From contig DASSBC010000078.1 of NCBI GenBank assembly GCA_035699125.1, positions 13,603 to 77,602 on the forward strand: 64,000 nucleotides of DNA. Direction: 5' to 3'. The position numbers and the translations under genes were made by a program. Below, in pieces: positions 7,915 to 30,686 of this stretch; the stretch's first letter is position 1, and every line of letters starts with the position of its first letter. The notes below the pieces were generated by a model that made no database searches, was not told the origin of the DNA, and saw only the letters and a list, made by a program, of their open reading frames with translations. Origin of the DNA: Anaerolineales bacterium. GTDB taxonomy: Bacteria; Chloroflexota; Anaerolineae; Anaerolineales; Villigracilaceae.

Positions 7915-7925
7915 GCAGTCCGAAG

Positions 7926-8546: not shown

Positions 8547-8568
8547 TATAGTTTGTCCTTGATCAAGC

Positions 8569-14956: not shown

Positions 14957-15099
14957 ACGCCCACACCTTCAATCTGCGCGATCATGTCTCAAGGTACGAG
15001 TACCCTAATGGAACTTGCCAGCAAGTCTCGCGTGCACGTTTACAACACACTAACCGATGACACGTGGCGGACTCAGACACTTACTTCAACTCATCAACC

Positions 15100-16671
15100 A
15101 TGAATAACCATAAGGCCCTACAGCAATTGCTGGTTCAATCGGCACAAAATTTCCCTGATCGGATTGCAGTTGAGGAGACTGATCAAGGTGCAATTACATA
15201 CCACGACCTTAACCAGCTTTCTGATCGGCTCAGGGACCAACTTATCCATCTGGGTATTCGCCCAGGCGACAGGGTAGGGATTTATTTGCGGAAGTCGATT
15301 GATGCAGTGGCTTCTATTTTTGGCACCTTAAAAGCGGGGGCAGCGTATGTGCCTGTAGATCCGGGCGCTCCTCCTGCCCGAAATGCCTATATATTTAGCG
15401 ACTGTACAGTCAAAGCCATCATCATCGAAAACCGATTCGTGGAAAAGCTTTGTGCAGAATTTGCGAACCAGAATGAGCTTCCCGCGCTCATTGTCTTAAA
15501 TGGAACAGGTGGCGGACGTCACCTGAAAAGTGCATTGGAACAAGCGAATATGGATTACCCGGTGCATCTTAATTCTTTTGAGCTCTCTTCGGATAATCTT
15601 GCTTATATCCTTTACACATCCGGTTCCACAGGCAAGCCAAAGGGGGTCATGCTATCTCATCAGAATGCACTCAGCTTCGTCAACTGGTGTTCGGAAGTGT
15701 TTGAACCCAATGAGGTCGACCGATTCTCATCGCATGCGCCGTTCCACTTTGACCTTTCTATTCTGGATATTTATGTCTCTATAAAGCATGGGGCGACACT
15801 GGTGTTGGTAGAGGAAGAAGTCGGTAAAGATCCGACTCGCCTCGCACAGCTAATTTCAGAGAAAAGGATCACAGTTTGGTATTCCACGCCCTCCATCTTG
15901 AGCTTTCTGGCTCAATATGGAAAACTAGACCATTATATATTTTCCAACTTGCGGCTGGTTTTATTCGCTGGTGAAGTTTTTCCAATCAAACATCTTCGGA
16001 TGCTGAAAGATCTTCTTCCCTTGCCTAGGTACTTCAATTTGTATGGACCAACCGAGACCAACGTATGCACTTATTATGAAATTCCTGCAACACTCTCAGT
16101 GGACCACACGAAACCGTTTCCGATTGGGAAAGCTTGTACTCATTACAGGAACATGATTAGGGTCGTAGATGAACAGGGACAGGATGTTGAGATTGGACAA
16201 ATGGGAGAATTAATAGCTACTGGTCCGGGTGTCATGCAAGGGTATTGGAATCTTCCGGAAAGGACAGCCAGTGCTTTTCTCGTCGATTCCTCCGGACAGC
16301 GCTGGTATAAAACTGGGGATCTCGTAGTTCAGGATGAAAATGGTGATTATCTCTATATCAGCCGACGTGATCGGATGGTCAAGAAACGTGGGTACAGAAT
16401 TGAGTTGGGTGAAATCGAAGCGGGGTTGTACAAGCACCCTGAGGTTAAGGAAGCAGCGGTCATCGCTTTATCGAACGATGAAAATGGGGTACAGATCAAG
16501 GCGTTTCTAAGTTTCAAGAACGGGCTAAATCTTTCCCGGATCGAGCTGAAGCGATTCTGTGCGGAAAATTTACTGACTTATATGGTTCCCGATTTCTTCT
16601 CTTTTCTGGATAGCCTGCCCAAAACTTCGACAGATAAAATCGATTATCAAAAGCTGAAAACACTAGACTAA
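15100..16671 (+). CDS. Stand-alone adenylating enzyme, DltA-like (amino acid/carrier-protein ligase)
   Basis: AMP-binding core LAYILYTSGSTGKPKGV, FHFDLSILDIY (A4-type FD motif), NLYGPTETNV, YKTGD, PKTSTDKID (A10 Lys). The track ORF starts at GTG 15064. The ATG at 15100 (MNNHKALQQLL...) gives the usual length. Confidence 0.85.
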   Translation: MNNHKALQQLLVQSAQNFPDRIAVEETDQGAITYHDLNQLSDRLRDQLIHLGIRPGDRVGIYLRKSIDAVASIFGTLKAGAAYVPVDPGAPPARNAYIFSDCTVKAIIIENRFVEKLCAEFANQNELPALIVLNGTGGGRHLKSALEQANMDYPVHLNSFELSSDNLAYILYTSGSTGKPKGVMLSHQNALSFVNWCSEVFEPNEVDRFSSHAPFHFDLSILDIYVSIKHGATLVLVEEEVGKDPTRLAQLISEKRITVWYSTPSILSFLAQYGKLDHYIFSNLRLVLFAGEVFPIKHLRMLKDLLPLPRYFNLYGPTETNVCTYYEIPATLSVDHTKPFPIGKACTHYRNMIRVVDEQGQDVEIGQMGELIATGPGVMQGYWNLPERTASAFLVDSSGQRWYKTGDLVVQDENGDYLYISRRDRMVKKRGYRIELGEIEAGLYKHPEVKEAAVIALSNDENGVQIKAFLSFKNGLNLSRIELKRFCAENLLTYMVPDFFSFLDSLPKTSTDKIDYQKLKTLD

Positions 16672-16731
16672 ATTGGTAATAAAAACTCATCAGTCAGGCT
16701 TTTGTGAGTCTGAATTACAGAGAGGCTCAGC

Positions 16732-18090
16732 ATGAAGCCATTCATAGATTTTTCACAACTTCGGCTGCGCCCACTGCTCATCATCAGCGAGTTGCTGCTT
16801 ATCGCTTCTCTGGCGTTTGTGGCTTCCCAACGCGAATTGATGTTGGTTTTTGTTCTACTCGTAGGTGTGGGAGTCGTTTTGGCTTTCCTACGCTGGCCGT
16901 CCCTGGGGCTCATTGTCGCCTCTGTAGCCGGGATGATTATTCCCTTCGTGGGTCCCAGCGGGTTAAACGTGACTATGGTCTTAATCGCCCTGCTGCTTGG
17001 CCTTTGGCTGCTGGCTATGATAGCTCGTCAGCATCAAATCCAGATCGCCCCTTCACGTACTGTACGACCGCTCCTGGCTTTCCTTGGTATAGCCGCCTTT
17101 TCGTTTGGACTTGGTCAGTTGCCCTGGTTGACTTTCGCCCTCCATGCGCCTCTGGGGGCCCAGCTTGGAGGTCTATCGATTATCGTGCTTTCTGTAGCTA
17201 CTTTCTTATTGATGGCAAACCAGATGCATGACCTGAGCTGGTTGAGTAGGTTGACCTGGGCATTTCTGGCTGTTGGTGCGTTGTCCCTTTTTTTTCGGTC
17301 GATGCTACCAGCGTTGGGACTACCTACACTGCCCTTGTTTCAGCCAGTTGGTACCGTCTTTTATGTCTGGCTAGTAGCGATGGCTTTCAGCCAAGCTGTC
17401 CTCAACAAGGATTTGCATCCGGGCTGGCGACTGTCTCTCGGTGGGTTGGTACTTGTGGTGCTTTACGTTTTGTTTGTTTTGAAATTTGCCGACAAATCAG
17501 GTTGGTTATCGGTGTTTATCTGTATGGCTGCTATCATTGTAGCTCGCTCCTGGCGTGCTGGCTTGGCTTTGGCTCCGATCGCAGTCCTTGCAGCATTGTA
17601 TCTGTGGTCGGGACTCATCTCTACAGATGAATATAGTATCTCAACGCGCTTTGATGCTTGGTTGATCATGGCACAGATTATTAGAATTAGTCCGCTATGG
17701 GGACTGGGCTTTGCAAATTACTATTGGTATACACCCCTCTTTCCAATCAGGGGTTATGCGGTCAGTTTCAATTCTCATAATAACTATGTGGACATCCTAG
17801 CCCAGACGGGGCTGGTGGGACTGGTCTGCTTATTATGGCTCTTTTGCGAGCTAGGGTGGCTGGGCTGGCAGCTACGAAAACATGCACCGGCTGGCTTTGC
17901 TCAAGCTTACGTCTACGGTGCTTTGGGTGGACTGGCTGGGATGGTGGTGGCTGGAATGTTGGGGGATTGGATACTACCCTTTTTTTATAACATTGGCCTG
18001 AACGGATTCCGCTCCAGTATGTTTGGCTGGCTTTTCCTCGGCGGGTTGGTGAGCCTAGAGCAGATGGTAATATCACGGAGGTCGAGGTAA
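16732..18090 (+). CDS. Wzy/O-antigen-ligase-like polytopic membrane protein
   Basis: 452 aa, about 10-12 hydrophobic helices. Wzy_C-type motif FNSHNNYVDILAQTGLVGL. Track ORF 16704..17231 is an overlapping alternative frame. Confidence 0.7.
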   Translation: MKPFIDFSQLRLRPLLIISELLLIASLAFVASQRELMLVFVLLVGVGVVLAFLRWPSLGLIVASVAGMIIPFVGPSGLNVTMVLIALLLGLWLLAMIARQHQIQIAPSRTVRPLLAFLGIAAFSFGLGQLPWLTFALHAPLGAQLGGLSIIVLSVATFLLMANQMHDLSWLSRLTWAFLAVGALSLFFRSMLPALGLPTLPLFQPVGTVFYVWLVAMAFSQAVLNKDLHPGWRLSLGGLVLVVLYVLFVLKFADKSGWLSVFICMAAIIVARSWRAGLALAPIAVLAALYLWSGLISTDEYSISTRFDAWLIMAQIIRISPLWGLGFANYYWYTPLFPIRGYAVSFNSHNNYVDILAQTGLVGLVCLLWLFCELGWLGWQLRKHAPAGFAQAYVYGALGGLAGMVVAGMLGDWILPFFYNIGLNGFRSSMFGWLFLGGLVSLEQMVISRRSR

Positions 18091-18106
18091 TGATGGGAGC
18101 GGCATA

Positions 18107-18352
18107 ATGATGTTGAATTCCCAACAACCGAATGTTATTGTGATTATCCTCGATGTCGTTTGAGCCAAGAACACCTCAGTCTACGGCCATTCGATGGGAA
18201 CTACCCGTTACCTGGATGAATTTGCCGCTGAAAACGTTCTCTTTAAACGAGCATTTTCACCTGCCACATGGACCATTCCGACCCACGCCTCCATGTTAAC
18301 CGGTCTCTACCGCCTTCAGCTGGGAGAATTCCAAGAAGTAAAACCGATATGA
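18107..18352 (+). pseudogene. Remnant of a sulfatase-like (alkaline phosphatase superfamily) gene: N-terminal ~80 codons with an in-frame TGA
   Basis: Hand translation gives MMLNSQQPNVIVIILDVV*AKNTSVYGHSMGTTRYLDEFAAENVLFKRAFSPATWTIPTHASMLTGLY..., which matches the sulfatase-family N-terminus (compare the intact paralogue at 43029: RPNVILLTIDTLRVDRLGCYG...). TGA at 18161-18163 sits where that paralogue has Arg. The frame ends at 18350-18352, far short of a full-length (~450 aa) enzyme. Confidence 0.6.
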
Positions 18353-19908
18353 GAAATTTTTATTATGCTGCTCATTTCCTGATTCTCATACTATTCGGCA
18401 TCAGCGTGATTTTCTATTTCAACTTTACGGCTGAGGATGCTTACATTACTTATCGGTATGCAGAAAATTGGGTCACCACTGGCTCCCTGGTTTACAATGA
18501 GGGCGAACCAATCAATGCGATGACTTCACCACTACATGCTGTACTTTCTGCAGCATTGTTTTTCGTGACTAGCAATACCGTTCTAAGTAACAAAGTACTA
18601 TCTTTGCTCCTTTTGCTACTTTCGGCATTTTTGGTTTGGCGTCGATATAGAGAACATCTTCATTTACAAGTATTAGCCATTCTACTGTTGATGCCTCCCT
18701 GTGTATTGCTGTGGACATTTGGAGGGCTGGAAACCCCCATACTTCTTTTTCTAGCAACTCTTACAGTGACTTTAGCCCTTTACTCAATCCCATTCGGGTT
18801 TAATTCTCTTTACGTGATATTTTTTCTGGCTGGTTTGGCATTTCTTACCCGTTATGATTCAATATTCTTCTTCCTGCCTGTACTCCTTTATGCGAGTTCG
18901 AAAACACAATCCATAAAGCATGTTGCTTTTGCTGTAAGCATAGCGGCAATTTTGCCCCTCGCTTGGTTATTTGTTAGTGTCTATTATTATGGTGATCTTC
19001 TCCCAACTTCATTTTATGTTAAGACTCCAAAAGGAAATTTAGGTACTTTATTTTTTAACGGGATGTATATCGCTTCTTATCTTATATATATTGGAGTCAT
19101 TCCCGTAGCAGCGACGTTATTTGCCACGCTAATACCAAAACATAAAAGGATTGACGTTTTATATCAGCACTTCAAAAGCCTTTGGTGGCTTTATACAGCG
19201 CTAATACTAATGATTTTATATGGGTTGACGATGGCAACCCATCACATGATGTTTTCTTTCCGCTTCTTTGTTCCGTATATACCTTCGACGGTGATACTTG
19301 TGGTGGACCTCTTTCGCCGTGCATCTGAGACCAGAGGAACAGACCTGTCAACAGGAAGGCCAGCGTACCTATTCTCAGGCTTTCTTCTGTGCCTGCTGAT
19401 GTTTCAACTCTATCAAAATATATACACTTATAATCATTCCCTCAATGGGATCTCCTCGATCGGAGAATACAGGGCTCTTGGCATTCGTGACTATGGCAGT
19501 TTCATGCAGATTCTGAAGCAGGAGGCCGTGGATATTCAGAATCATTGGGATGAACATGGCAATAGCGCTCGTCGCCCACGTATCATTACCTATGCAGCAG
19601 GGATTTTGCCTTATACGTACCGAGAATCATACATTTATGAGAAGTTGGTCTCGTATCGCCACTGCTATGAACGCTATCATCAGGCGTTATATGCAGACTA
19701 TATTCATATCCTTGCACCCAGACAGGGCCAGATAAATCAGCAGCTACCGAGACCAGAAGATAGCTATTTTCTCGTGTCATCATACGAGATGTTTTTTGAC
19801 GGATCGATACAACAATTCCTTGTTTATTACAATCCAAAACCTGAGGCACATAACCTGAGTGCCCGGATCAACGAGCCTTGCGAAGTGGAGAGCAGGGCCG
19901 GAAACTAA
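18349..19908 (+). CDS. Polytopic membrane protein, GT-C-fold glycosyltransferase-like
   Basis: About 12 hydrophobic helices. Acidic first-loop motif FTAEDAYITYRYAENW...GEPINAMTSPLH, the position where GT-C enzymes carry their D/E-D motif. C-terminal soluble part. The track ORF starts at 18268, but those 27 codons are an out-of-frame reading of the sulfatase remnant. ATG 18349 (MRNFYYAAHFL) overlaps the remnant stop as ATGA. Confidence 0.6.
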   Translation: MRNFYYAAHFLILILFGISVIFYFNFTAEDAYITYRYAENWVTTGSLVYNEGEPINAMTSPLHAVLSAALFFVTSNTVLSNKVLSLLLLLLSAFLVWRRYREHLHLQVLAILLLMPPCVLLWTFGGLETPILLFLATLTVTLALYSIPFGFNSLYVIFFLAGLAFLTRYDSIFFFLPVLLYASSKTQSIKHVAFAVSIAAILPLAWLFVSVYYYGDLLPTSFYVKTPKGNLGTLFFNGMYIASYLIYIGVIPVAATLFATLIPKHKRIDVLYQHFKSLWWLYTALILMILYGLTMATHHMMFSFRFFVPYIPSTVILVVDLFRRASETRGTDLSTGRPAYLFSGFLLCLLMFQLYQNIYTYNHSLNGISSIGEYRALGIRDYGSFMQILKQEAVDIQNHWDEHGNSARRPRIITYAAGILPYTYRESYIYEKLVSYRHCYERYHQALYADYIHILAPRQGQINQQLPRPEDSYFLVSSYEMFFDGSIQQFLVYYNPKPEAHNLSARINEPCEVESRAGN

Positions 19909-19936
19909 CGGAACCTGGAAAAGACCTTCTGTGGAA

Positions 19937-22645
19937 ATGGTAATGAGATTAAGATTGCGACAATTTGGATGGATTCTCAGGTTGGTGACATTATGCGTTG
20001 CCAGTGCCTTGTTTATCGTGTCCATCCCACCATCATGGGCATTTGCACAGTCTACGAGTGATTCCTGGACCGAGCCCGTAAACCTTTCCCATTCAGGTAT
20101 TGCTACAAACCCAAACATCGTGGCAGCTTCTGATGGCTTGGTACACGTCGTATGGCAGGATGATTTAGGGGAATACATGTACTCACAGTTTGATGGTGAT
20201 CAGTGGAGTACACCTGAGATGACCGGACTGAATCGTGTGTTCAGGCTCCCTGGCCCTGAAGAGCCAGTTGACCCGTTTCAAATAGCGAACTATACCGGTC
20301 CGAATCCACTGTTCATCAAGGGTTCTGACGAGCGTATTTTCGCCTTCTGGATCAACCCTGAAGGTAGAGTGTATGTCAGCAACGTGGATAACCAAAGTTT
20401 TAAAGATGATGTGGCGTGGGGTTCTGGGCGTCTTATAACGCCGGGAGCAGCCTATTTTGCCGCAGCCGTCGACGCGTTCGGCACATTGCATGTGGCTTTT
20501 TTGCAGACAGAGGACAACGCTGACAATCCGCCAGGTATTTACTATACGCAGTCTATTAATAATGGCGGAGGCTGGACTAAACCTGTTCGTCTGTATGAAT
20601 CTCCTTATCTCCGCACACTCGACCGAGGTGAGGCGCATCTCAGCATTGCCACAGCCGAGACAAAGGACACACCGCGCGTGTATGTTGCTTGGGATAACCG
20701 GCCTCGTAAGCAGGTATTACTGACGCAATCCGCGGACGGAGGGCAGACTTGGGAAGAACCAGAGCTCGTCGCGGGTCCAGCGCCAAACTCTGGGTTGTCG
20801 GGACCATTCAATGTCCAAGTGGGTACCTTTAAGAACAGCATTATGCTTGTCTGGCAGAATGGTCAGCCAGAAGGCCCTTGCGCCCAGTTCTACAAGTTCT
20901 CTAGAGATGCGGGCAAAACTTGGAACGAATCACAACCCATGCTCGAGGATCTGTTGGGCTGCGCGCAGTCTAATGAATTTTTAACAGGATTGCAGAACGG
21001 CTCCGAAGACCCGTTATTTCTACTGACTGAATCGAAAAACCAGGTTGTCCTGATGGCATGGGACGGTCGCCAATGGAGCCAGCCGCAGACACAACAAATA
21101 CTATCCGGATTTGAAGAGCCGGAGATTTACACCGAGGTTGTTTACAGTTGCCGTCGTGCCTCTATGTTAGAAAAGCAACTATACGTCGTTGGGTGCGACG
21201 AAGGAGGAAGCGGTGATGTCTGGGTGACTTCCCGGGACCTGGGTTCGAATGCTTCCTGGTTTTCGCAACCAGCTTGGAGTCCGCCATCCCCCATTACCAG
21301 TGAAAACTCCGAGATGGAAGCGGTTAAGCTGGTGAACACAGACGATGGCTCATTTCATGCTTTTTTTAGTAAGCATCAGGATTTGTCAATTTATTATACG
21401 TACTGGGATGGCGAGTTATGGTCGCGTATAACTCCGGTACTGGAACTTCCAGAAGGGGAAGCTGGCTTGCCAGCCATAACAACAGGATCAGGTAATGAGT
21501 TGTTCCTCTTCGTTCCCAACAATCGAGGCGCTGTTTACTTTAGCCGGGCAACTAGCGGCAATGCAGCTACTGAATCCGGCTGGTCTTCGCCCACCCGACT
21601 CGAAATAGGCCATGACGGAGAGATTGGTGCAGTAGATGTCGCCGAGGATGCCGTTGGGTCACTCTATCTGGCTTACTCTGTTCCATTGAATGAAGCGCGC
21701 GGCATCTATCTCGCGCAATCAATGGACAATGGAGCATCTTGGTCAGAGCCAATCCAAGTTTTCAACGGGGCTACAGCAGGTTTCGATCTTGTCGGCGCGC
21801 CTTCTTTATCGGTGTCGGATAACGGCATCTTCCATATCGTGTGGAAAGAGCAAACCGTGCAAGGCGATGGAGTTCCACAATCTCTTTCTCTTTTTTACAC
21901 TCGATCCGAGGATGGTGGGCATACCTTCAGCGAGCCGGAGCTGCTTCTTGAAGAACCGGCGGCTTGGCAACAGATTGTGACCGATGGCAAAGGTAATCTG
22001 CACCTACTTTGGCAGTGGCAGGACATGAGGACAACGGTCTGGGATCAAGTCTCTTTAGATGGTGGGCGCTCATGGCAGGTTGCACAGGGATTACCGGTCG
22101 AAGGGTTGGCAGTATCCATTATGGCAGATCCTGCTGGCCAGTTACATGTACTCCATGCAGGTTCGGGCTCTCTGGGACATTGGCTTTGGGACGGGAGTCG
22201 CTGGGAGAGTGAAGAACCTCTTAATTGGAATCTGGCTTCGCAACCTGGAGAGGCAACACAATTATTGGCGGCTACTGTCAACAAACAAGGAAAGGTGGTG
22301 GTTGTCCTGGCAGTCCCGACGGGAGCAGAAAACGCGGCAGAGCAGATCCTTCTTTATTCTACACACATGCTCAAGCTTACCAGCCAACAGCCCGCGGCCC
22401 AAGACTCCCCCACTGAGACACTGTTACCGCCCACACTGACTCCGGCAACATCCACTCCTGAGCGTTTACCAACCTCAATTAGCACCTTTGAGATGGAGCC
22501 AACCAGCGCTCAGGGCAAAACGGATCCTAACGACATCAACCAGCCCGTATCACCCTTCGCGATGGCCCTGCTACCGGTCGCGCTTCTGCTGCTCAGTGTC
22601 TTGGGTATTATGATCAGACGAGTCACACGGGCACAGGATTCATAG
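19937..22645 (+). CDS. Secreted BNR/Asp-box repeat beta-propeller protein (sialidase-like fold), C-terminally membrane anchored
   Basis: Signal peptide MVMRLRLRQFGWILRLVTLCVASALFIVSIPPSWAFA. Six Asp-boxes (SINNGGGW, SADGGQTW, SRDAGKTW, SMDNGASW, SEDGGHTF, SLDGGRSW). Pro/Thr-rich linker, terminal TM helix and basic tail. The track start at 19859 overlaps the previous gene; ATG 19937 is preferred. Confidence 0.8.
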   Translation: MVMRLRLRQFGWILRLVTLCVASALFIVSIPPSWAFAQSTSDSWTEPVNLSHSGIATNPNIVAASDGLVHVVWQDDLGEYMYSQFDGDQWSTPEMTGLNRVFRLPGPEEPVDPFQIANYTGPNPLFIKGSDERIFAFWINPEGRVYVSNVDNQSFKDDVAWGSGRLITPGAAYFAAAVDAFGTLHVAFLQTEDNADNPPGIYYTQSINNGGGWTKPVRLYESPYLRTLDRGEAHLSIATAETKDTPRVYVAWDNRPRKQVLLTQSADGGQTWEEPELVAGPAPNSGLSGPFNVQVGTFKNSIMLVWQNGQPEGPCAQFYKFSRDAGKTWNESQPMLEDLLGCAQSNEFLTGLQNGSEDPLFLLTESKNQVVLMAWDGRQWSQPQTQQILSGFEEPEIYTEVVYSCRRASMLEKQLYVVGCDEGGSGDVWVTSRDLGSNASWFSQPAWSPPSPITSENSEMEAVKLVNTDDGSFHAFFSKHQDLSIYYTYWDGELWSRITPVLELPEGEAGLPAITTGSGNELFLFVPNNRGAVYFSRATSGNAATESGWSSPTRLEIGHDGEIGAVDVAEDAVGSLYLAYSVPLNEARGIYLAQSMDNGASWSEPIQVFNGATAGFDLVGAPSLSVSDNGIFHIVWKEQTVQGDGVPQSLSLFYTRSEDGGHTFSEPELLLEEPAAWQQIVTDGKGNLHLLWQWQDMRTTVWDQVSLDGGRSWQVAQGLPVEGLAVSIMADPAGQLHVLHAGSGSLGHWLWDGSRWESEEPLNWNLASQPGEATQLLAATVNKQGKVVVVLAVPTGAENAAEQILLYSTHMLKLTSQQPAAQDSPTETLLPPTLTPATSTPERLPTSISTFEMEPTSAQGKTDPNDINQPVSPFAMALLPVALLLLSVLGIMIRRVTRAQDS

Positions 22646-22713
22646 ACGCAGGTACCTTCTTAATTGACTGCTACAGATTTCTCGCCCCAGAGAAACATAA
22701 CATAGTGATAATC

Positions 22714-23790
22714 ATGAAAATTAGCAATCGCGGGTTACTAATTAATGTATCCCTTTTCATCTTTTCTACCATTTTTGCTCTCGTTCTAAGTGAAATAGGA
22801 CTGCGGCTTACGGGGTTTAGCCCACTGTATGTTAGTCCGGAACGAGATCGTTTTTGGAAATATGATTCCTTGTTAGGGTGGGCGCATGAAGCTGGTCAAG
22901 ACGGGATCTTTGAAACGCCACAATTCCGTACCTTTGTGCGGATTAATGATAAGGGTTTGCGCGACCGCTCGCACTCGTATGAGCGTCAGAATGATACTGA
23001 GCGCATCTTAGTGCTTGGTGATTCCTTTGCATGGGGCTATGGTGTAGAAGAAGAAGAGCGATTCTCCCAACTGCTGGAAAAATTACTCGATGCTGAAGTG
23101 ATCAATGCTGGTGTCTCGGGTTACAGCACGGATCAGGAATTGCTTTGGTATAAGAACGAAGGCATCAAATACGAAACGGATCTTGTCATAGTAGTGTTCG
23201 CCGGCAACGATATAGGCGATAATGAGAAACAACTTGTCAATAACATCTACTATAAGCCGCAATTTGTGATCGACGAAGGTGGGTTAGTCCTTACAAATTA
23301 TCCGGTCCCTAAAACCAGTCCACAAGGAAGATTCATATACTCTCTCTCAAAGCGATCGGCCCTCGCCTATTTTCTCACTCAAAGATATTTTGACATAGTT
23401 ACTTTATATCGCAAGACAAAAGTAGATGCAGACCACGTCAACGTACCGGGATCCGGTGTACAGCCTGAAAAAAAACCTTTTGAACTGACAATTGCCCTCA
23501 TGCATGAAATGAGACAGACCGCTGAGTCCAGGGGTGCAAAATTTCTGATCGTTGCCACGGATAGTTGGTGGAATTATCCATCTAAAGAAAATTACGAAAA
23601 CTTTCTCACCACAATGCGAAGTGAAGGATTTCTGGTTTTGGATGTTGAATCGATGCCAGGTTTTTCTTCCGAAGACATGCTGATTCCAGATGATGGTCAT
23701 TGGAATCAATCCGGCCATAAATTTGTGGCAGCAAAGATTAAAGACTTTATCGAGGTTAATCAGCTGCTTATCCAGGTGAATTCTAAGTAA
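22714..23790 (+). CDS. Membrane-anchored SGNH/GDSL-like hydrolase or acyltransferase
   Basis: N-terminal TM anchor. Block I ILVLGDSFAWGYGV, block III VFAGNDIGD, block V PDDGHWNQSGH. Confidence 0.75.
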   Translation: MKISNRGLLINVSLFIFSTIFALVLSEIGLRLTGFSPLYVSPERDRFWKYDSLLGWAHEAGQDGIFETPQFRTFVRINDKGLRDRSHSYERQNDTERILVLGDSFAWGYGVEEEERFSQLLEKLLDAEVINAGVSGYSTDQELLWYKNEGIKYETDLVIVVFAGNDIGDNEKQLVNNIYYKPQFVIDEGGLVLTNYPVPKTSPQGRFIYSLSKRSALAYFLTQRYFDIVTLYRKTKVDADHVNVPGSGVQPEKKPFELTIALMHEMRQTAESRGAKFLIVATDSWWNYPSKENYENFLTTMRSEGFLVLDVESMPGFSSEDMLIPDDGHWNQSGHKFVAAKIKDFIEVNQLLIQVNSK

Positions 23791-23942
23791 CAGGATTGCA
23801 CCGGGACGACGATGGGATGGACCGAGAGATCTAAGAATTCAGCCTCTTGCAGAGCATTATTATGGAGATAGTCAGCCAGCTTGGGCATTAGGCATAAATT
23901 TACTTTGTGAATCTTCTAATTAAGAAGATGAATGGAGAAACA

Positions 23943-24194
23943 ATGACAATACAAGATATTAAGGAAGTGATTCGGGTTTACATTCTCGAAGAGTTCCTCC
24001 CTGGGGAAAACCCGGCGGAGCTGACGGACTCGACCCCTCTGATTACTGGAGGAATCCTCGACTCGCTTGCCACGATAAAGCTGGTGGCGTTTCTTGAAGA
24101 GCGGTTTCATATCCAGATCCAAGCGCATGAGACGATGGTCGACTATCTAAACACCATCTCCGACATTGCGCAATTAGTCAGCTCCAAGCTATAA
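23943..24194 (+). CDS. Acyl/peptidyl carrier protein, DltC-like
   Basis: 83 aa from the ATG preceded by GGAGAAACA. Phosphopantetheine attachment motif GGILDSLATIKLVAFLEERF. The track ORF starts further upstream at GTG 23907. Confidence 0.8.
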   Translation: MTIQDIKEVIRVYILEEFLPGENPAELTDSTPLITGGILDSLATIKLVAFLEERFHIQIQAHETMVDYLNTISDIAQLVSSKL

Positions 24195-24203
24195 AGGGGA
24201 TCG

Positions 24204-27113
24204 TTGCTCGTGGAACGCATTCTATTTGGAAGTTATCGGTGGAACAAACTTCTACCTGCCGCTCTGATTTTGAGTGGCGCAAGCATCACAGCTATAGCCC
24301 TAGCTGCTGATCTTCTAAATCTCGGCGGCCCGCGCGGTATCGGCCCCAATCAAGTTTCCTTGGCTCTGAGCGGATTTGCCGTATTGCTTGCTGGTATAGT
24401 CCTGATCTCATCCGTAAATTGGCGCTACATTGCCGAGTGGTCGCTCGTGATTGCCGCAGCGGTGGCTGTAGCCTTTGCCTCCGACCTACTGGTGATCAAC
24501 GGCCTGCCGGAATTTGCAGCCAAGCATGTAGTGCTGGCATCAATCGGGTTCAGCCTTTTTCTAACTGTCGCGGTTCCTGCAGACTCTGACAAAAAGAGGA
24601 GCCTCGACGAGTGGCTCAGTGTGTTCGCTACGGACCGAGTCAGGGTGATTCAGTTTCTGAGCGTGACAGTTCAACTCGGAATTCTGGTCCTGGTGATGCG
24701 CCAATTCCAGTTGGAAAACCAGGCGTTTTATCTAAGCATCGCACCCCTCACCTTTTACGGCTTTCTGATCCACTTTTTCCTTCCCGATCACTACCGCATG
24801 CCGTTTTTCCTGCTTCTCTCAATTCTAGCCATTATTGGCATACTGGGCCTTGTGCCGGCTGTCTGGTTGCTAGGGATAGGGCTCGGGCTGATTGGAATTT
24901 GTCACCTCCCGATTCTCTATCCCGCCAGGCTAATAGTGCTGCTTTCGATCACAGTTCTACTGGTCGCGTTACGGGTGAATTGGATTCCGTTCCCTGCTCT
25001 TAACGTGATCTGGCCGGTCTTGGCCTCGATGTTTATGTTCCGGTTAATCATCTACGTCTACGATCTCAAGCACGGCAAGACGAAGCCGACCATCACAAGC
25101 ACTCTATCCTATTTCTTTTTACTGCCTAATGTCGTTTTTCCTTTCTTTCCCGTTGTAGACTATAGTACCTTTCGTCGGACGTACTACGACGACGACCAAT
25201 TCCGGATCTACCAGAAAGGGCTGCAATGGATGCTGCGCGGGGTGATTCAGCTCATCGTATATCGCTTGGTCAATTATTACCTTATGGTTGCCCCGGAGTC
25301 CGTCACCAATACCCCTGAGTTGATTCGCTATGTCATTTCCAATTTTGCTCTCTATATTCGGATTTCAGGCCAATTTCATCTGATCATCGGTCTGTTACAC
25401 CTGTTCGGTTTCAACTTGCCGGAAACACATCACCTGTACTTCATGGCCTCCAGCTTCACGGATTTGTGGCGCCGCATTAATATCTATTGGAAAGACTTTA
25501 TGTTAAAGGTATTTTATTACCCCACTTACTTCAGAATCCGGAGGTGGGGCGCCAAGAGCAGCCTTATCTTTGCAACCTTCTTTGTATTTTTCCTGACTTG
25601 GTTTTTTCATGCGTATCAGTGGTTCTGGCTGCGGGGCACATTCCTTTTCACTGCGCCAGATATGGTGTTCTGGTTTATTCTGGCATGTTTGGTAGTGGTC
25701 AATACCCTATATGAGGTCCAGCGTGGTCGAAAACGCACCTTAGGACAGCGATCCATGACCTTTGGAGATATTATTGCTCTGGCACTCCAAACAGCTGGTA
25801 CCTTCATCGCCATGGCTGTGCTGTGGTCGCTATGGAGCAGCGAGTCACTCCGGGATTGGATTGCTTTGATCTCGGTAGTGGGAATTAGCCCACAAAATAT
25901 TGCAACATTACTCCTGGTCTTCCTGATGATTACAGTGGTGTTCGGCCTAGTGACCTGGCTAAGAGTTCGCGCTGAAACGAGCGAAGGAGCGAATACAAAG
26001 GCCTCTTACTTTTTTAGGACCGCGACCACGACCGGGGGTGCTGTCCTCTTGCTATTCCTCCTCGGAAACCCCGTTGTGTATGGTCAATTCGGCAGCAAGG
26101 CTCAGGGGCTGATTAGCGATCTGACAGTGAATCGGCTGAGCGACCGAGAAGCCGCACTTCTCCAGCGCGGCTACTATGAGGATCTTATCGGCGTGAATCG
26201 GTTTAACTCTCAGCTCTGGGAGATTTATAACAAGCGGCCTTCCGACTGGGTCGCGATTCGAGATACCCCGGCGATCCGGTTTACGAACGATAACCTTATT
26301 CTAGAACTTGCCCCCTCGACGACGATCGACTTCAACGGTACTCAGCTGAGTACCAATCGTTGGGGCATGCGTGACCGGGATTACGAGCAGATCCCTCCAC
26401 CGGACACATATCGGATCGCCCTGACCGGACCATCGTTCGTAATGGGATATGGTGTTGCCGATGACGAAGGCTTCGACCCCCTGTTAGAAGATCATCTGAA
26501 TGAGGTAAATGCTGGGAATCCATATGCCAAATATGAAATTCTTAACTTCGCCGTTCCCGGCTATTCCGCCATTCAGGATCTGATGGTTCTAGAACAAAAG
26601 GTACTATTGTTTCAACCAAACGCCATATTCTTTATGGCTCATCAGCGTGAAGAGGAGGCAGCAGTGATGTACCTTGCCGACCGAATCTCGGCTGGTGCCG
26701 AGCTCCCTTATCCAGAACTTCTGGAGCTCGCACGTCGCGCAGGGGCTGAGCCAGGAGCGTCAAAAGAAGAGATAGCACGGCGTCTTACTCCCTTTGGCTC
26801 CGAGATTCTCGCATGGACCTACCGCCGTGTTGTGGATGTTTCTCACGACTATGATATGGTGCCTGTATGGATTTTCATGCCGACCCTGGAGTTCCCACTA
26901 CAGGAAGATAAAGTGGACGGCTTGGTCCGCCTGGCCGAGGAGTCTGGTTTTGTAGTTCTCGATCTTTCCCATGCCTACGACGGTCAAGACCCGGAGTCGA
27001 TCGTGGTTGCCTACTGGGACAAGCATCCGAATGCCAAGGGACATATGCTGATTGCGGAGGACCTATATCTTAAACTCCGGGAAAAACAAGCGGAGATTCA
27101 TCTTTTCCAATAG
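24204..27113 (+). CDS. MBOAT-family membrane O-acyltransferase (DltB/AlgI-like) fused to a C-terminal SGNH-like domain
   Basis: 969 aa. Long polytopic region with the MBOAT-type segment FTDLWRRINIYWKDFMLKVFYYP and a later conserved-His candidate FFLTWFFHAYQW. The C-terminal ~330 aa soluble domain has YRIALTGPSFVMGYGV (GDS-like block I) and YWDKHPNAKGH (block V-like). Confidence 0.8.
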   Translation: MLVERILFGSYRWNKLLPAALILSGASITAIALAADLLNLGGPRGIGPNQVSLALSGFAVLLAGIVLISSVNWRYIAEWSLVIAAAVAVAFASDLLVINGLPEFAAKHVVLASIGFSLFLTVAVPADSDKKRSLDEWLSVFATDRVRVIQFLSVTVQLGILVLVMRQFQLENQAFYLSIAPLTFYGFLIHFFLPDHYRMPFFLLLSILAIIGILGLVPAVWLLGIGLGLIGICHLPILYPARLIVLLSITVLLVALRVNWIPFPALNVIWPVLASMFMFRLIIYVYDLKHGKTKPTITSTLSYFFLLPNVVFPFFPVVDYSTFRRTYYDDDQFRIYQKGLQWMLRGVIQLIVYRLVNYYLMVAPESVTNTPELIRYVISNFALYIRISGQFHLIIGLLHLFGFNLPETHHLYFMASSFTDLWRRINIYWKDFMLKVFYYPTYFRIRRWGAKSSLIFATFFVFFLTWFFHAYQWFWLRGTFLFTAPDMVFWFILACLVVVNTLYEVQRGRKRTLGQRSMTFGDIIALALQTAGTFIAMAVLWSLWSSESLRDWIALISVVGISPQNIATLLLVFLMITVVFGLVTWLRVRAETSEGANTKASYFFRTATTTGGAVLLLFLLGNPVVYGQFGSKAQGLISDLTVNRLSDREAALLQRGYYEDLIGVNRFNSQLWEIYNKRPSDWVAIRDTPAIRFTNDNLILELAPSTTIDFNGTQLSTNRWGMRDRDYEQIPPPDTYRIALTGPSFVMGYGVADDEGFDPLLEDHLNEVNAGNPYAKYEILNFAVPGYSAIQDLMVLEQKVLLFQPNAIFFMAHQREEEAAVMYLADRISAGAELPYPELLELARRAGAEPGASKEEIARRLTPFGSEILAWTYRRVVDVSHDYDMVPVWIFMPTLEFPLQEDKVDGLVRLAEESGFVVLDLSHAYDGQDPESIVVAYWDKHPNAKGHMLIAEDLYLKLREKQAEIHLFQ

Positions 27114-27124
27114 AGGGCAATAAG

Positions 27125-28381
27125 ATGAACGAACAACATGTAAAACAGAGAGCTTTTGTATCTGTGCTCGGAAACGTTGTTCTAGCCTTAATAGGGCTGA
27201 CGGTTGCACTCGGATCGGTAGAATTCCTGATGAGGACTTTTCCCAATTGGATCCCACCCGAGATAAGAGTGAATCCGCCAGCACGTCGTGTACATGCCTT
27301 CATAGATGAAACCTATGACTTAAGGCATTCTGACGGCGATCTGTTTTATCATATGCGGGGGAGTATTATACCTATTTCGCCCGATCATGATAAGGTGATC
27401 GCCCGTATACATATGATCACCGACGCCCACGGTTTTCGCAATTCTCCTCCGGAAAAAGCGACTTATCGCGTTGTTGCACTAGGCGACTCGTTCACCAGAG
27501 CTAGTGGCTCCGCGTTCTCCTGGACTCAAAAACTGGCCGAAAGTATGGGGAGTGATGTGCTCAACCTTGCGGACGTGGGTTTTGGACCACAGGATGAGTT
27601 AAAAGTATTACAACAGTATGGCGTGAAAAAGCAGCCGCAATGGGTGATCACAGCATATTTTGAGGGAAATGATTTATATGATGCCGCGGCGTATGAACAA
27701 GCGACGCCGTTCATCTTGCTCCGGTTTGGAAGATACATAGTAGATCGGAGTCTAGAAGCCTGGCATGAGACGAGCCAGGATGGGACTCAGGCTAAGGCAG
27801 CCCCAAACTTCCGCTATCCAATTCCGCTCACAATTAATGACAACGAGCTTGAGATGGCTTTTTTCTCGTACTATATCTCTTGGCTGTCTGCTGACCGGGA
27901 AGCAATCAAATTATCAAAAAATTACCACTTAACGACCGAGACAATGTTGCAAATGCAGGAGTTGAGTAAAACATCGAACGCTCATTTTCTGTTGGTCTAT
28001 GTGCCGTCGAAGGAACATGTTTATCTGCCATATTTGAAGAATGCCGATATTCTAGAACGCGTTTTTACAGACGTGCCTCGGATAGGAATGGACCAAGAAG
28101 GTTATCTACAATTCATGAAAGAAAGAGCAACGCCGGAACTCACCCGCCAGCACATGAATGATCAGGCTATGCTACTGGCTGACTTTGCGGTGGAGCATCA
28201 TTTATTCTTTCTTGACTTGACAAAAGCCTTTCAAGAAAAAGCAGGCGCAGGTGCAGAATTGTATTACCCTTTCGACACCCATTGGAACCAGATCGGGCAC
28301 AATTTGGCTGCTGAAACAATCTACAAGTACATTCAAACTAAACTCCACGGATATAGAAATGAAAATTTTGTGCCTAATTAA
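27125..28381 (+). CDS. Membrane-anchored SGNH-like protein of the AlgX/AlgJ/DltD type
   Basis: N-terminal TM anchor. VVALGDSFTRASG, YFEGNDLYD, and YYPFDTHWNQIGH (the DTHW motif typical of AlgJ/AlgX-type O-acyltransferases). Confidence 0.7.
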   Translation: MNEQHVKQRAFVSVLGNVVLALIGLTVALGSVEFLMRTFPNWIPPEIRVNPPARRVHAFIDETYDLRHSDGDLFYHMRGSIIPISPDHDKVIARIHMITDAHGFRNSPPEKATYRVVALGDSFTRASGSAFSWTQKLAESMGSDVLNLADVGFGPQDELKVLQQYGVKKQPQWVITAYFEGNDLYDAAAYEQATPFILLRFGRYIVDRSLEAWHETSQDGTQAKAAPNFRYPIPLTINDNELEMAFFSYYISWLSADREAIKLSKNYHLTTETMLQMQELSKTSNAHFLLVYVPSKEHVYLPYLKNADILERVFTDVPRIGMDQEGYLQFMKERATPELTRQHMNDQAMLLADFAVEHHLFFLDLTKAFQEKAGAGAELYYPFDTHWNQIGHNLAAETIYKYIQTKLHGYRNENFVPN

Positions 28382-29408
28382 TAACGAGGTAAAGCCAGAT
28401 GACCGGTGGCTGTGGAATTATCTGCCCTCGAATACAGACGAGGTGGATTTTGTGGTCGCCACCGGGGCGATAGATCGGTTTAAAAAATGGGGAAAACTCT
28501 TTACCTATTATCCAGCTTTTATGCGGGCAGGGTTCCATGCCTTTCGCAAAACCCGAAAAACCCCGTATGATTTAGTAATAGCCTGGGGAGGTCAAAATGG
28601 ATTTACGTATGCCTTCCTGAGAAGTATGTTCGGTCAGAAGACCCCGCCGCTGATCATCCTATCCTTCAATCTTCAGGGCGTGCTCAGCCACTTCCTTAGT
28701 TTGGCGCGATTTGGAATGCGTTCAGTCTCACGGGTGGTCGTCTTTACGCCTTCTGAAGTCGAGAAATACCGGCGAATGCTATCTCTCCCTCCCGAGGCGA
28801 TTTCCTACTGTCCTCATGGCTGGTATGACCCGATGCGCTGGTATGTTCCAGGGGAAACGAAGGAAGCAGCCGCCCTAGCCGGGAATGGAAGATTCGTTTT
28901 CACTTCTGGCCGTTCCTATAGAGACTACGAGACTCTGGCTCGTGCGGTTGAGGGAACCGAGGCGTGTGTTAAAGTTAGCAGCCGCCCGTTTAATATAGGC
29001 GGAGTAAAACTGCCCGGGAACATGGAATCCCTAGGATGGCTCGATTATCGGGTGGCACAGGACTACATGTATGAATCCAGTTTTTATGTGGTCCCCCTTC
29101 AGGGTATCGATTTCGCCGGCGGCGACAGCAGTCTTCTCCAGGCGATGAGCTTCGGCAAGGCAGTGGTGGCGACGCGCGCACCCAGTACAGAAACCTATCT
29201 TGAACACGGTAAGACCGGGCTGCTTGTGGAACCAGGCGATATAGAAGGAATGCGGCAGGCAATCCTTCATTTGTGGCGAAATCCAGACGAAGCCATAAGG
29301 ATGGGTAAAGAGGCAAGGCAACATTTTGAAGAGAATCACACGATGGATAAACTGGCACAACGCGTTTACGATGTCGCCCTCGAGGTCTATCGTGCTCAAC
29401 GTGGTTAG
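28359..29408 (+). CDS. GT4-family glycosyltransferase
   Basis: MKILCLINNE start. C-terminal ...GGDSSLLQAMSFGKAVVATRAPSTETYLEHGKTGLLVEPGD.... The track start at 28251 overlaps the previous gene by 131 nt; ATG 28359 overlaps it by 23 nt. Confidence 0.8.
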   Translation: MKILCLINNEVKPDDRWLWNYLPSNTDEVDFVVATGAIDRFKKWGKLFTYYPAFMRAGFHAFRKTRKTPYDLVIAWGGQNGFTYAFLRSMFGQKTPPLIILSFNLQGVLSHFLSLARFGMRSVSRVVVFTPSEVEKYRRMLSLPPEAISYCPHGWYDPMRWYVPGETKEAAALAGNGRFVFTSGRSYRDYETLARAVEGTEACVKVSSRPFNIGGVKLPGNMESLGWLDYRVAQDYMYESSFYVVPLQGIDFAGGDSSLLQAMSFGKAVVATRAPSTETYLEHGKTGLLVEPGDIEGMRQAILHLWRNPDEAIRMGKEARQHFEENHTMDKLAQRVYDVALEVYRAQRG

Positions 29409-30663
29409 TGCCAAGAACAAGCAGCTGCTGATCTGCATCCTGGTCCTGGCTGTGCTGATCCGCATACCGATTGCCGTCTTGATGGGAGATCAGATCACTG
29501 TTTTACCTGGTATTCAGGACCAGGTGTCTTATGATGCCTTGGCACGAAGTTTATTGGATGGACGAGGCTACAGTTTTACAGAAAAGTGGTATCCATTCAC
29601 GCCGGCTGATACGCCCACAGCTCACTGGTCTTTCCTTTATCCATTGTACCTGGCCGGAGTTTATGCAGTTACAGGACATCATCCCCTGGCTGCCAGGCTC
29701 CTCCAAGCGGTTGTGGGCGGCGCATTGCTGTGTTTACTTGTTTACAGAATAGGCCGTCGGGTGGCAAATGAAGAAACCGGGCTGGTTGGCGCTGGTCTGG
29801 CTGCAGTCTATGGATACTTTGTTTATTACAATGCAGCCTTAATGACAGAGACATTCTTCATTGTACTGATACTGCTAGCACTTCATCTAAGTTTAGAAAT
29901 CAAAGAAAGTCCTACACTGCTACGTTGGATCGGGCTTGGCATTTCGTTAGGCTTGGCGGGCTTACTCAGGCAGACAATACTTCTTTTCATTCCGTTTCTG
30001 CTGTTTTGGTTGTTTTTGGAGCTAAGAAACCGAGTCACTCACTGGTCACACTTTTCCATCCCGCTTGTCATCACCCTTCTCTTGATTGCCCCGTGGACTC
30101 TGCGCAACTATCTGGTATATCGCGAATTTCTTCTCTTGAATTCCAATGCCGGTTATGCTCTCTTTGCTTCCAACAACCCGAACCTCGGAACAGATTGGAA
30201 TAATGATGTAGTCGTAGTGCCAGTGCCTGGGGAGTTGCAAGGGCAAAATGAAGCGCAGCTCGATCGAGCCCTGACACGACGAGCGGTCGAATTCATCCGT
30301 GCAGACCCGGAACGTTATCTGCGGCTGACCCTCGATAAAACCCTTGAGTTTTTCTGGTTTTGGCCTTCTTCTGACTCAAGCCGAATCAGCAATCTGAACC
30401 GGGTGCTTTCTTTTGGCTTATACTTGCCGTTCATGCTTTTCGGGCTGTATATATCCCTCTCACGCTGGCGCAGCTTTGTAGTTCTGTATTTATTCATTTT
30501 TATACATACCACAATCCACCTGCTCTCCTGGCCTGCAGCAAGATATCGCCTAAGTGTTGACGCCGTGTCAATGGTCTTTGCCGGATTGGCCGTGCTTGAG
30601 CTTGCAAAACAATGGAAAAGCTGGCGTCGCGAGCTTCCCTTAACAGATAAACTCAGTTTTTGA
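29371..30663 (+). CDS. GT-C-fold glycosyltransferase, ArnT/PMT (GT39/GT83)-like
   Basis: Polytopic protein. First-loop motif IQDQVSYDALARSLLDGRGYSF, typical of PMT_2/ArnT-like proteins. The start is uncertain (ATG 29371, GTG 29392 or 29401; the track uses 29326). Confidence 0.7.
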   Translation: MSPSRSIVLNVVSAKNKQLLICILVLAVLIRIPIAVLMGDQITVLPGIQDQVSYDALARSLLDGRGYSFTEKWYPFTPADTPTAHWSFLYPLYLAGVYAVTGHHPLAARLLQAVVGGALLCLLVYRIGRRVANEETGLVGAGLAAVYGYFVYYNAALMTETFFIVLILLALHLSLEIKESPTLLRWIGLGISLGLAGLLRQTILLFIPFLLFWLFLELRNRVTHWSHFSIPLVITLLLIAPWTLRNYLVYREFLLLNSNAGYALFASNNPNLGTDWNNDVVVVPVPGELQGQNEAQLDRALTRRAVEFIRADPERYLRLTLDKTLEFFWFWPSSDSSRISNLNRVLSFGLYLPFMLFGLYISLSRWRSFVVLYLFIFIHTTIHLLSWPAARYRLSVDAVSMVFAGLAVLELAKQWKSWRRELPLTDKLSF

Positions 30664-30686
30664 AAAACATCGGTATCCAAGCGGAC

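Follow-up and report, generated by a model that had tools for sequence, protein, structure and literature searches.

The carrier-MBOAT route was previously known only for D-alanine on teichoic acids. This Dlt system (DltA/DltC/DltB/DltX/DltD) combines an adenylating enzyme and a carrier protein with an MBOAT-fold protein that has a catalytic His and is paired with an SGNH protein. In the Dlt and PatA/PatB systems the acyl group is passed from a cytoplasmic thioester, by way of the MBOAT His, to the Tyr of an outer-face motif, then to an SGNH Ser, and from there to the polymer (PMC12148441). MBOAT/SGNH pathways other than Dlt operate without a carrier protein (PMC12148441, 2025). We analyzed a 64,000-nt stretch of DNA from an Anaerolineales bacterium (contig DASSBC010000078.1, positions 13,603 to 77,602; the whole stretch is hereafter called the window) and found an MBOAT-SGNH fusion protein encoded together with a carrier protein and with enzymes of the type II nonribosomal peptide synthetase (NRPS) kind that act on carrier-bound proline. 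We consider it on balance probable that these genes form a carrier-dependent MBOAT-SGNH module in which L-proline is oxidized to a pyrrolyl-S-carrier, halogenated in this organism, and relayed to a glycan outside the cytoplasm; both the acyl group delivered and the polymer that receives it are predicted. The genes central to this reading are:

15100-16671, + strand: stand-alone L-proline-type adenylation enzyme (PltF/RedM/AnaC class), the ligase; open reading frame (ORF) 15064-16671, starting at ATG 15100 or GTG 15064
23943-24194, + strand: type II peptidyl/acyl carrier protein (PF00550); ORF 23907-24194, possible starts 23928 and 23943
24204-27113, + strand: divergent MBOAT-fold acyltransferase with a fused SGNH domain, 969 aa, polytopic (AlphaFold2, Foldseek, hhalign)
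31834-32979, + strand: flavin adenine dinucleotide (FAD)-dependent prolyl-carrier-protein dehydrogenase of the acyl-CoA dehydrogenase fold (PDB and NCBIfam)
34505-35821, + strand: FADH2-dependent halogenase of the pyrrolyl-S-carrier class, PltA/Mpy16-like (PDB matches)

A first-pass annotation of the window, made from the letters alone, had listed a DltA-like ligase, a DltC-like carrier, a DltB-like MBOAT and a DltD/AlgX-like SGNH protein (27125-28381), and all four ORFs were present on the + strand. The module resembles Dlt in its adenylating enzyme, its carrier, its MBOAT fold with the catalytic His and the SGNH domain that goes with it, and by analogy may share the relay from Tyr to SGNH Ser to polymer (PMC12148441). 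Unlike in Dlt, the ligase is of the L-proline type, and the acyl group on the carrier is predicted to be remodeled by a flavin dehydrogenase, which is an obligate partner, and in the window also by a halogenase. MBOAT and SGNH domains are joined in one protein, there is no DltX microprotein, and the candidate Tyr motif is GYYExL and not FxYxxF. The module also lacks a teichoic-acid context, and its hosts include diderm Proteobacteria and Chloroflexota. PatA/PatB, AlgI/AlgJ/AlgF/AlgX and WssH/WssI are similar to the proposed pathway in that an MBOAT and extracytoplasmic SGNH/AlgX-like proteins modify an exported polymer, but those systems use acetyl-CoA and no carrier (PMC12148441), and their MBOATs match PF03062 whereas that of the module does not. 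The OatA/OafA fusions join a membrane acyl-translocating domain and an outer SGNH transferase in one polypeptide, as is predicted for the module; their membrane domain is AT3, while that of the module has the MBOAT fold and its predicted donor is a carrier protein.

With regard to the biosynthetic enzymes, the same four classes as in the PltF/PltL/PltE/PltA cassette of pyoluteorin gave the best solved-structure matches, and the L-proline code is identical. Related type II NRPS pyrrole cassettes are Bmp1-4, RedM/O/W, PigI/G/A and Mpy. Unlike these cassettes, the module has no ketosynthase (KS), condensation (C) or thioesterase (TE) domain, its sole conserved partner is the membrane MBOAT-SGNH protein, and its carrier also resembles DltC and an NCBIfam acyl carrier protein (ACP) family. 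The AnaC/AnaD/AnaB enzymes that make the anatoxin-a starter are comparable in that the dehydrogenase of the module is closest to 4irn (463 bits), but the window holds no polyketide synthase (PKS) and does hold a pyrrole-type halogenase. A precedent for pyrrole esters is found in clorobiocin and coumermycin biosynthesis, where the CloN1-N7 proteins esterify carrier-bound pyrrole-2-carboxyl to a sugar hydroxyl; these acyltransferases are cytoplasmic and soluble and act on a small-molecule aminocoumarin, not through a transmembrane relay on a polymer. Clorobiocin biosynthesis employs a two-carrier shuttle, and two carriers are also found in the Promineifilaceae loci described below.

Proline-type ligase, dehydrogenase and halogenase

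The ligase matched the Pfam families AMP-binding (E 8.5e-88) and AMP-binding_C (E 5e-14), and its score of 369.8 bits passed the cutoff (317.4) of the amino-acid adenylation domain model TIGR01733. The best single-domain match in the PDB was PltF (6o6e, named L-proline--[L-prolyl-carrier protein] ligase; E 9.7e-99, 334.8 bits), as compared to 230 bits for GrsA-A and 194-217 bits for the DltA structures in the same search; LgrA entries ranked above PltF only because two adenylation domains were summed. We extracted the 10-residue specificity code by mapping its positions through the conserved motifs FDxS, TxPxS, AGE and NxYGPTE and the final K, and obtained DLLYLALVCK. Stand-alone L-proline adenylation domains carry L(L/F)YLALVC at these positions while modular proline domains carry VQ(Y/F)IAHVV, and the code of the ligase was an exact match to the stand-alone consensus (PMC3874040). 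Among 57 aligned proline-type ligases (the window protein and its homologues from all phyla) 50 had the identical code; the remaining ones differed at one position, and one sequence ended before the final Lys. The enzyme is thus an amino-acid adenylation domain and not an acyl-CoA synthetase. The motif FHFDLSILDIY with its Asp, from which the first-pass annotation had argued for amino-acid activation, was indeed there, but the DltA-like assignment could not be upheld. The ligase fell far below the cutoffs of the DltA equivalog models TIGR01734 (294.9 bits, cutoff 559.85) and NF003417 (307.5 bits, cutoff 476), and PltF outscored DltA by more than 115 bits. Together with the L-proline code, these scores led us to reject a D-alanylation role for the ligase as very unlikely.

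The four top PDB matches of the dehydrogenase were all prolyl-carrier dehydrogenases or their complexes, namely the prolyl-ACP dehydrogenase 4irn (E 6.4e-138, 463 bits), the L-prolyl-PCP (peptidyl carrier protein) dehydrogenase 5zw0 (E 8e-100, 338 bits), 6af6 (~E 1e-99) and 6cxt_B (E 6.6e-96), and the same was true of the Mesorhizobium orthologue. We take 6cxt_B to be the Bmp3 dehydrogenase, crystallized with its carrier, 6cxt_A. The best NCBIfam models were PigA (447.9 bits, cutoff 500) and RedW (409.3 bits, cutoff 650); since both scores are under the equivalog cutoffs, the protein is a member of the family and not an equivalog. The halogenase matched 5buk (E 6.6e-132), PltA (5dbj, E 3.6e-127) and 7fco (E 8e-127), and the alignment with 5buk and PltA contained the motifs GGGPAGS (GxGxxG), FPKKFGA (with the Lys), WAWQIP (WxWxIP) and FVDPIFSSG. 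PltA-type halogenases require an aromatic pyrrolyl-S-carrier. Both enzymes had been overlooked when the nature of the acyl group was first described as open; with a prolyl-carrier dehydrogenase and a pyrrolyl-type halogenase in the same array, that description no longer fully applies.

Carrier protein and MBOAT-SGNH fusion protein

The carrier scored 23.7 bits on PF00550 (cutoff 20.8), and its gene stops 9 nt before the MBOAT gene. The phosphopantetheine-attachment Ser (codon 24063-24065, in GILDSLA) was invariant in all 78 homologues, so a modifiable Ser is present. PDB matches were led by a PCP, 2my5 (E 3.6e-9), and included PltL (E 2.4e-8), 6cxt_A (E 1e-6) and, in sixth place, DltC (6bug_A, E 2.6e-5). 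The DltC equivalog models gave scores well below their cutoffs (NF003464, 28.8 bits against 68; TIGR01688, 18.9 bits against 52.35). The description of this protein as a DltC-like carrier is therefore correct as to the carrier and its GILDSLA motif, but it is not a DltC equivalog and PCPs rank above DltC. The carrier also reached 120.2 bits on NF052616, 'ornithine lipid biosynthesis acyl carrier protein (ACP_for_OlsHI)', which has a cutoff of 130. We rejected this identity, as the OlsH/OlsI paper discusses neither a carrier protein nor an MBOAT, and regard the score as family resemblance only.

The 969-aa protein encoded by the next gene was not recognized as an MBOAT by any sequence profile. 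NCBIfam and Pfam scans returned only a weak GDSL match, none of 34 family members matched Pfam MBOAT (PF03062) even at E<=10, and an hmmsearch of the family profile against PDB sequences gave noise and no DltB or other MBOAT. We therefore turned to predicted structure. An AlphaFold2 model built on 34 close relatives, a shallow alignment, had a predicted local distance difference test score (pLDDT) of 61.7 and was discarded. With 93 sequences including Proteobacteria, for which the matches of a search with the Mesorhizobium homologue were added to the earlier ones, the model of residues 140-969 reached a pLDDT of 88.6 and a predicted TM-score (pTM) of 0.82. The top Foldseek match of this model in the PDB was DltB (6bug_C, E 1.3e-6; 8jem_A, target TM-score 0.66 over 430 columns), followed by HHAT, both with a probability of 1.00, while the C-terminal third matched the SGNH esterases TesA, Axe2 and EstL5. 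When the family profile was aligned by hhalign to a canonical PF03062 MBOAT (from locus L056), the probability was 73% (E 3e-5, 302 columns). The alignment paired LFGFNLPETHHLY..SSFTDFWRRINIYWKDF with LFGIVLPLNFNSPY..SISDFWRCWHMTLSRF, and also SSFTDFWRRINIYWKDF with S.SDFWRCWHMTLSRF, and the invariant His469 was aligned to the WHG His of the canonical MBOAT. The DltB-like assignment of this gene thus holds at the level of fold, although Pfam, NCBIfam and PDB profiles are silent and the fused SGNH domain had gone unseen.

Residues 1-140 of the fusion form extra transmembrane helices that are seen in Chloroflexi members. The MBOAT core (~141-545) has the invariant residues H392, N426 and H469 and is followed by three more transmembrane helices, and the SGNH domain (~700-969) has the invariant residues S744, D939 and H941. 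No FxYxxF motif was present; found after the last transmembrane helix was an invariant GYYE(D/N)L motif (G656-Y-Y-E-x-L661, 93 sequences). It falls in a stretch of the model whose pLDDT is below 50, which is true of no other segment. The positive-inside rule assigned loops 508-519 and 587-599 to the cytoplasm, which would put both the SGNH domain and the GYYExL loop on the outer side; the predicted topology derives from this rule. The locus that supplied the canonical MBOAT belongs to Candidatus Accumulibacter, where this protein (L056:20588-22144, PF03062 E 3e-37) is encoded ~5 kb downstream of the module, with IS66 and DDE transposases and a DruA-like gene in between.

Distribution of the module and the proposed relay

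When GTDB was scanned at one genome per species, 258 relatives were found, and the best 80 loci were fetched with 10-kb flanks. Forty-one of these were informative, with 6 kb or more of sequence on either side, and ligases were counted at 50% identity or more. A carrier adjoined the MBOAT gene in 39 of the 41 loci; the dehydrogenase was present in 38, the ligase in 33, and all three in 33, so that the co-occurrence of the genes is widespread. Some of the loci outside the 33 have a ligase at 44-46% identity (e.g. L012, L017). The hosts were Anaerolineales, Promineifilaceae and Ardenticatenaceae within Chloroflexota, and also Acidobacteriota, Methylomirabilota, Burkholderiales, Rhodocyclaceae/Accumulibacter, Methylomonas, Pelomicrobium and Verrucomicrobiota, as well as seven named species of Mesorhizobium that are in culture, among them M. 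delmotii (L064), M. temperatum (L058) and M. muleiense (L069). The genomes nearest to the window were Anaerolineales metagenome-assembled genomes, and the window protein was identical to a JGI metagenome protein (sample 3300047676). The family as a whole comprised 1,088 clusters at 50% identity (E<=1e-30), of which the top 150 were all fusions of ~830-960 aa.

Outside Chloroflexi, in Proteobacteria, Acidobacteriota and Verrucomicrobiota, the genes follow the order MBOAT-SGNH, carrier, ligase, dehydrogenase with a spacing of 0-70 nt. The conserved set is therefore ligase, carrier, MBOAT-SGNH fusion and dehydrogenase. The scattered layout that had been remarked on is real in the window but lineage-specific, and gives way to a compact operon elsewhere. 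In Accumulibacter the four-gene operon is bounded by cyclic di-GMP, lytic transglycosylase, epimerase and transposase genes, with no glycosyltransferases; standing alone among unrelated neighbors, these four genes define the minimal module and have no other offloading enzyme at hand. The operon of Mesorhizobium delmotii lies in an exopolysaccharide (EPS) locus with Wzx, GT4, pyruvyl-transferase, methyltransferase and Bac_transf genes. Modules inside glycan loci were thus found in three distant lineages, namely in the window, in Promineifilaceae and in M. delmotii. The halogenase was confined to Chloroflexi among the 80 loci, and most module members outside Chloroflexi are without one.

In one Promineifilaceae locus (L012:9657-18420) the genes for the carrier, MBOAT-SGNH, SGNH, dehydrogenase, ligase, halogenase and a second carrier are contiguous, with gaps of at most 66 nt. 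The second carrier (29-37% identical) was seen in Promineifilaceae and in some Anaerolineales loci (L012, L017, L019, L007, L010), some of which also have a second proline-type ligase (43-46% identical) beside the halogenase, with the code DLFYLALVCK, or DLLYLALVCK in L007. We looked for such a second ligase/carrier pair in the window and found none.

In the relay that we propose, the stand-alone adenylation enzyme (15100-16671) would activate L-proline and load it onto the holo-carrier (23943-24194). The FAD dehydrogenase (31834-32979) would oxidize the prolyl-S-carrier, most likely to pyrrole-2-carboxyl-S-carrier, and in this Chloroflexi lineage the halogenase (34505-35821) would act on the pyrrole tethered to that same carrier. 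The carrier would then dock at the cytoplasmic face of the MBOAT domain (24204-27113), where His469 may catalyze acyl transfer across the membrane, probably onto the Tyr of GYYE(D/N)L at the outer face, which is a candidate only. From there the acyl group would move to Ser744 of the fused SGNH domain (Ser744/Asp939/His941) and finally be esterified to a hydroxyl on an extracytoplasmic polymer, for which the glycan exported by Wzm/Wzt is the most plausible candidate in the window. The order of these putative steps is likewise a proposal; what the analysis establishes are the families of the five proteins, the L-proline code, the MBOAT and SGNH folds, the invariant residues and the linkage of the genes.

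Several observations weigh against this relay. The MBOAT domain is so divergent that sequence hidden Markov models miss it, the first conserved MBOAT His is an Asn in the family (RRIN for RWH), and the candidate shuttle motif GYYExL differs from the canonical FxYxxF. The dehydrogenase is below the PigA and RedW equivalog cutoffs. Its closest structure, 4irn, is presumably AnaB. AnaB halts at a two-electron pyrroline product, dehydroprolyl-ACP, which feeds a PKS, and a four-electron oxidation is accordingly not assured. Some Promineifilaceae halogenases adjoin the second ligase/carrier pair and so may not use the MBOAT-linked carrier. As the Accumulibacter operon is not near glycan genes, the acceptor may not be a locus-specific glycan. 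Open-access PMC and bioRxiv texts contained no biochemical or structural-chemistry evidence of pyrrole esters on bacterial glycans.

The main uncertainty is chemical. The same module and relay could stop at a two-electron oxidation and export a 1-pyrroline-5-carboxyl (dehydroprolyl) or plain prolyl ester, with the halogenase acting elsewhere or only on the second carrier where there is one. We think this unlikely overall, and regard the dehydroprolyl ester as a serious alternative, especially in the halogenase-free lineages. It would agree with the ranking of 4irn over 5zw0 (463 vs 338 bits), which is the same in Mesorhizobium, and with the lack of a halogenase in most non-Chloroflexi modules, but is at odds with a pyrrolyl-type halogenase (~1e-130 to 5buk and PltA) that is co-directional here and contiguous in L012, and with the high scores on PigA (448 bits) and RedW (409 bits). 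The target may also differ from the one proposed, in that the SGNH domain could be a hydrolase that frees exported (halo)pyrrole-2-carboxylate, or the acceptor could be peptidoglycan, lipid or protein. Sequence does not separate SGNH transferases from SGNH hydrolases, the Accumulibacter operon has no glycosyltransferase neighbors, and free pyrrole-2-carboxylic acid is a known bacterial exometabolite, although the Lysobacter paper on it gives no gene information (PMC12194822). Set against this are the polysaccharide loci that surround the module in three distant lineages, the fact that all characterized bacterial MBOAT/SGNH pairs acylate polymers (PMC12148441), and the lack of any precedent for export of a small acid by a covalent relay; another target is in our view distinctly unlikely.

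It is highly improbable that the genes are unrelated neighbors, that is, that the proline/pyrrole cassette primes a distant NRPS/PKS product while the MBOAT-SGNH protein is an acetyl-CoA-dependent O-acetyltransferase. All characterized pyrrolyl-S-carrier cassettes, to our knowledge, feed KS/C domains or soluble acyltransferases, which would speak for such a separation. Acyl-CoA is moreover the donor in most bacterial MBOAT/SGNH systems (PMC12148441). The operon structure makes this unlikely, however: Pfam detected no KS, C or TE domain among the proteins of the 64-kb window, none was found in the four-gene operons (gaps 0-70 nt, several phyla), and the genes occur together in 33 of 41 informative loci. 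A true Dlt analogue, exporting D-alanine or another small amino acid unmodified as a cationic aminoacyl ester, could be read from the partial DltA model scores (295-308 bits) and from older GenBank records that name the Mesorhizobium orthologues D-alanine--poly(phosphoribitol) ligase. The same scores miss the cutoffs of 476 and 560, PltF is ahead by the more than 115 bits noted above, a prolyl-carrier dehydrogenase is the obligate operon partner, and above all the specificity code, an exact L-proline code, argues against D-alanylation, so that we give this alternative hardly any credence.

Full-text searches of open-access PMC and bioRxiv only, in which absence is not proof, found no paper joining MBOAT or DltB to prolyl or pyrrole chemistry, and the specificity code string had no match in the literature searched. 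The earlier suspicion of an undescribed use of the carrier/MBOAT route is in line with these searches. Public names of the proteins are 'SGNH/GDSL hydrolase family protein', 'hypothetical', 'amino acid adenylation domain-containing protein' and 'acyl-CoA dehydrogenase family protein', and IMG gives some family members DltB/AlgI COG names. What is new is a widespread predicted relay of the Dlt kind in which type II NRPS enzymes would tailor the acyl group, the membrane and SGNH domains are fused, and the acyl chemistry itself is predicted to be new. The broader idea, that this is a second widespread carrier-dependent MBOAT pathway besides Dlt, one that places proline-derived heteroaromatic esters (pyrrole-2-carboxyl, and in Chloroflexi its halogenated form) on extracytoplasmic polymers of diderms and monoderms and would amount to a new chemical class of surface modification, is more tentative, and we hold it to be quite possible without calling it probable. 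If the relay operates as proposed, an aromatic, possibly halogenated heterocycle would join acetyl, succinyl, D-alanyl and glycyl groups as an acyl decoration of surface polymers, type II NRPS chemistry would for the first time be sent across a membrane to a polymer rather than to a small molecule, and the carrier-MBOAT-SGNH relay would not be peculiar to Gram-positive teichoic acids. For annotation, more than 1,000 clusters (50% identity) that are named only 'SGNH/GDSL hydrolase' or 'hypothetical' contain an MBOAT domain missed by Pfam and NCBIfam. The four-gene operon in the EPS locus of a cultured Mesorhizobium makes the prediction open to genetics and polymer chemistry, and could have a bearing on symbiosis, biofilm, and phage or antimicrobial resistance phenotypes.

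Other SGNH proteins and the surrounding glycan genes

The remaining features of the window that concern the module or its presumed acceptor are:

7357-9549, - strand: heptose-type set of SIS, GHMP kinase and HAD genes (Pfam)
12805-14595, + strand: NodU/CmcH-type carbamoyltransferase directly upstream of the ligase (Carbam_trans_N E 1e-88, Carbam_trans_C E 4e-63)
22705-23790, + strand: membrane-anchored SGNH protein, its gene immediately preceding that of the carrier (Lipase_GDSL_2 E 1.8e-11)
27125-28381, + strand: AlgX/AlgJ-like membrane-anchored SGNH protein, the gene first described as DltD-like (Pfam ALGX E 2.9e-14, 53.8 bits, cutoff 26.5; DTHW)
30660-31805, + strand: membrane-anchored SGNH protein, a companion of the module in Chloroflexi with a putative accessory role (Lipase_GDSL_2 E 2.6e-10)
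36538-38667, + strand: Wzm/Wzt ABC exporter of the presumed acceptor glycan (ABC2_membrane E 2.5e-19; ABC_tran and Wzt_C)

Four separate SGNH proteins are encoded besides the fused domain (22705-23790, 27125-28381, 30660-31805 and 38691-39995), which is unusually many for one locus; three of them have an anchor-like hydrophobic N-terminus and DxHW(N)xxGH-like C-terminal motifs. The first-pass annotation had given the DltD-like role to 27125-28381. Its AlgX-like nature was borne out by the ALGX match, but homologues were found only in L003, L007 and L018 (3 of 80 loci). The gene is limited to a few close relatives, and the fused SGNH domain is the likelier holder of the DltD-like role. In L001, L003 and L008-L015 a homologue of 30660-31805 (56-82% identity) separates the MBOAT gene from the dehydrogenase gene, and the nearest Anaerolineales loci keep 22705-23790 at 68-73% identity. 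The ORF of the AlgX-like gene overlaps that of the following GT4 gene (28251-29408) by 131 nt, and the GT4 protein probably starts at a later codon than GTG 28251.

ORF calls and Pfam placed the module in a co-directional + strand array from 12805 to ~58013 that consists mainly of polysaccharide genes. The array opens with the carbamoyltransferase, the ligase, a weak Wzy_C match, a weak PMT_2/GT-C match, a 928-aa BNR protein, an SGNH protein and the carrier, so that the ligase is indeed split from its carrier by the Wzy-like, GT-C-like, BNR and SGNH genes, as had been described. It continues with the 969-aa membrane protein, the ALGX-domain SGNH protein, a GT4, a GT-C, an SGNH protein, the acyl-CoA dehydrogenase-fold protein, a Na+/H+ exchanger and the halogenase, and ends with HAD, Wzm/Wzt, SGNH, several GT4/GT2, sulfatase, second BNR, S8 protease and Wzz/kinase-like genes. 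Upstream, on the - strand, are a Bac_transf initiating transferase, the heptose-type set, a GT2, a radical SAM protein and a TPR protein. The genes at 7357-9549 and 36538-38667 agree with the proposed context of a heptose-containing, Wzm/Wzt-exported glycan. No teichoic-acid genes were seen in the window, where the neighbors are glycosyltransferase, Wzm/Wzt, GT-C and heptose genes, and this supports the earlier idea of a carrier-MBOAT-SGNH acyl-export logic outside a teichoic-acid context.

In L007, L010 and L020 the carrier and ligase genes form a pair that is flanked by a homologue of the carbamoyltransferase (77-80% identity), and the enzyme probably adds a second, possibly alternative, decoration (carbamoyl) to the same polymer. 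The Na+/H+ exchanger gene (32981-34462) lies between the dehydrogenase and halogenase genes, 1 nt past the former, and keeps this position in L003 and L009 (79-85% identity). Homologues of the radical SAM (4179-5849), GT2 (5883-7106), TPR (2341-4146) and BNR (19859-22645) proteins, at 78%, 68%, 31% and 30% identity, respectively, stand directly upstream of the module in L012 (L012:783-8272), and the four may belong to a glycan unit conserved in Chloroflexi that moves together with the module. Two large ORFs in the glycan array, 40087-41547 (486 aa) and 46018-47619 (533 aa), had no Pfam match at E<=0.01. Located among the glycosyltransferases are also a sulfatase-family protein (43029-44408) and a secreted S8 subtilase (47671-50088), which may point to the transfer of phospho or sulfo groups, or to protein processing, in connection with the envelope polymer.

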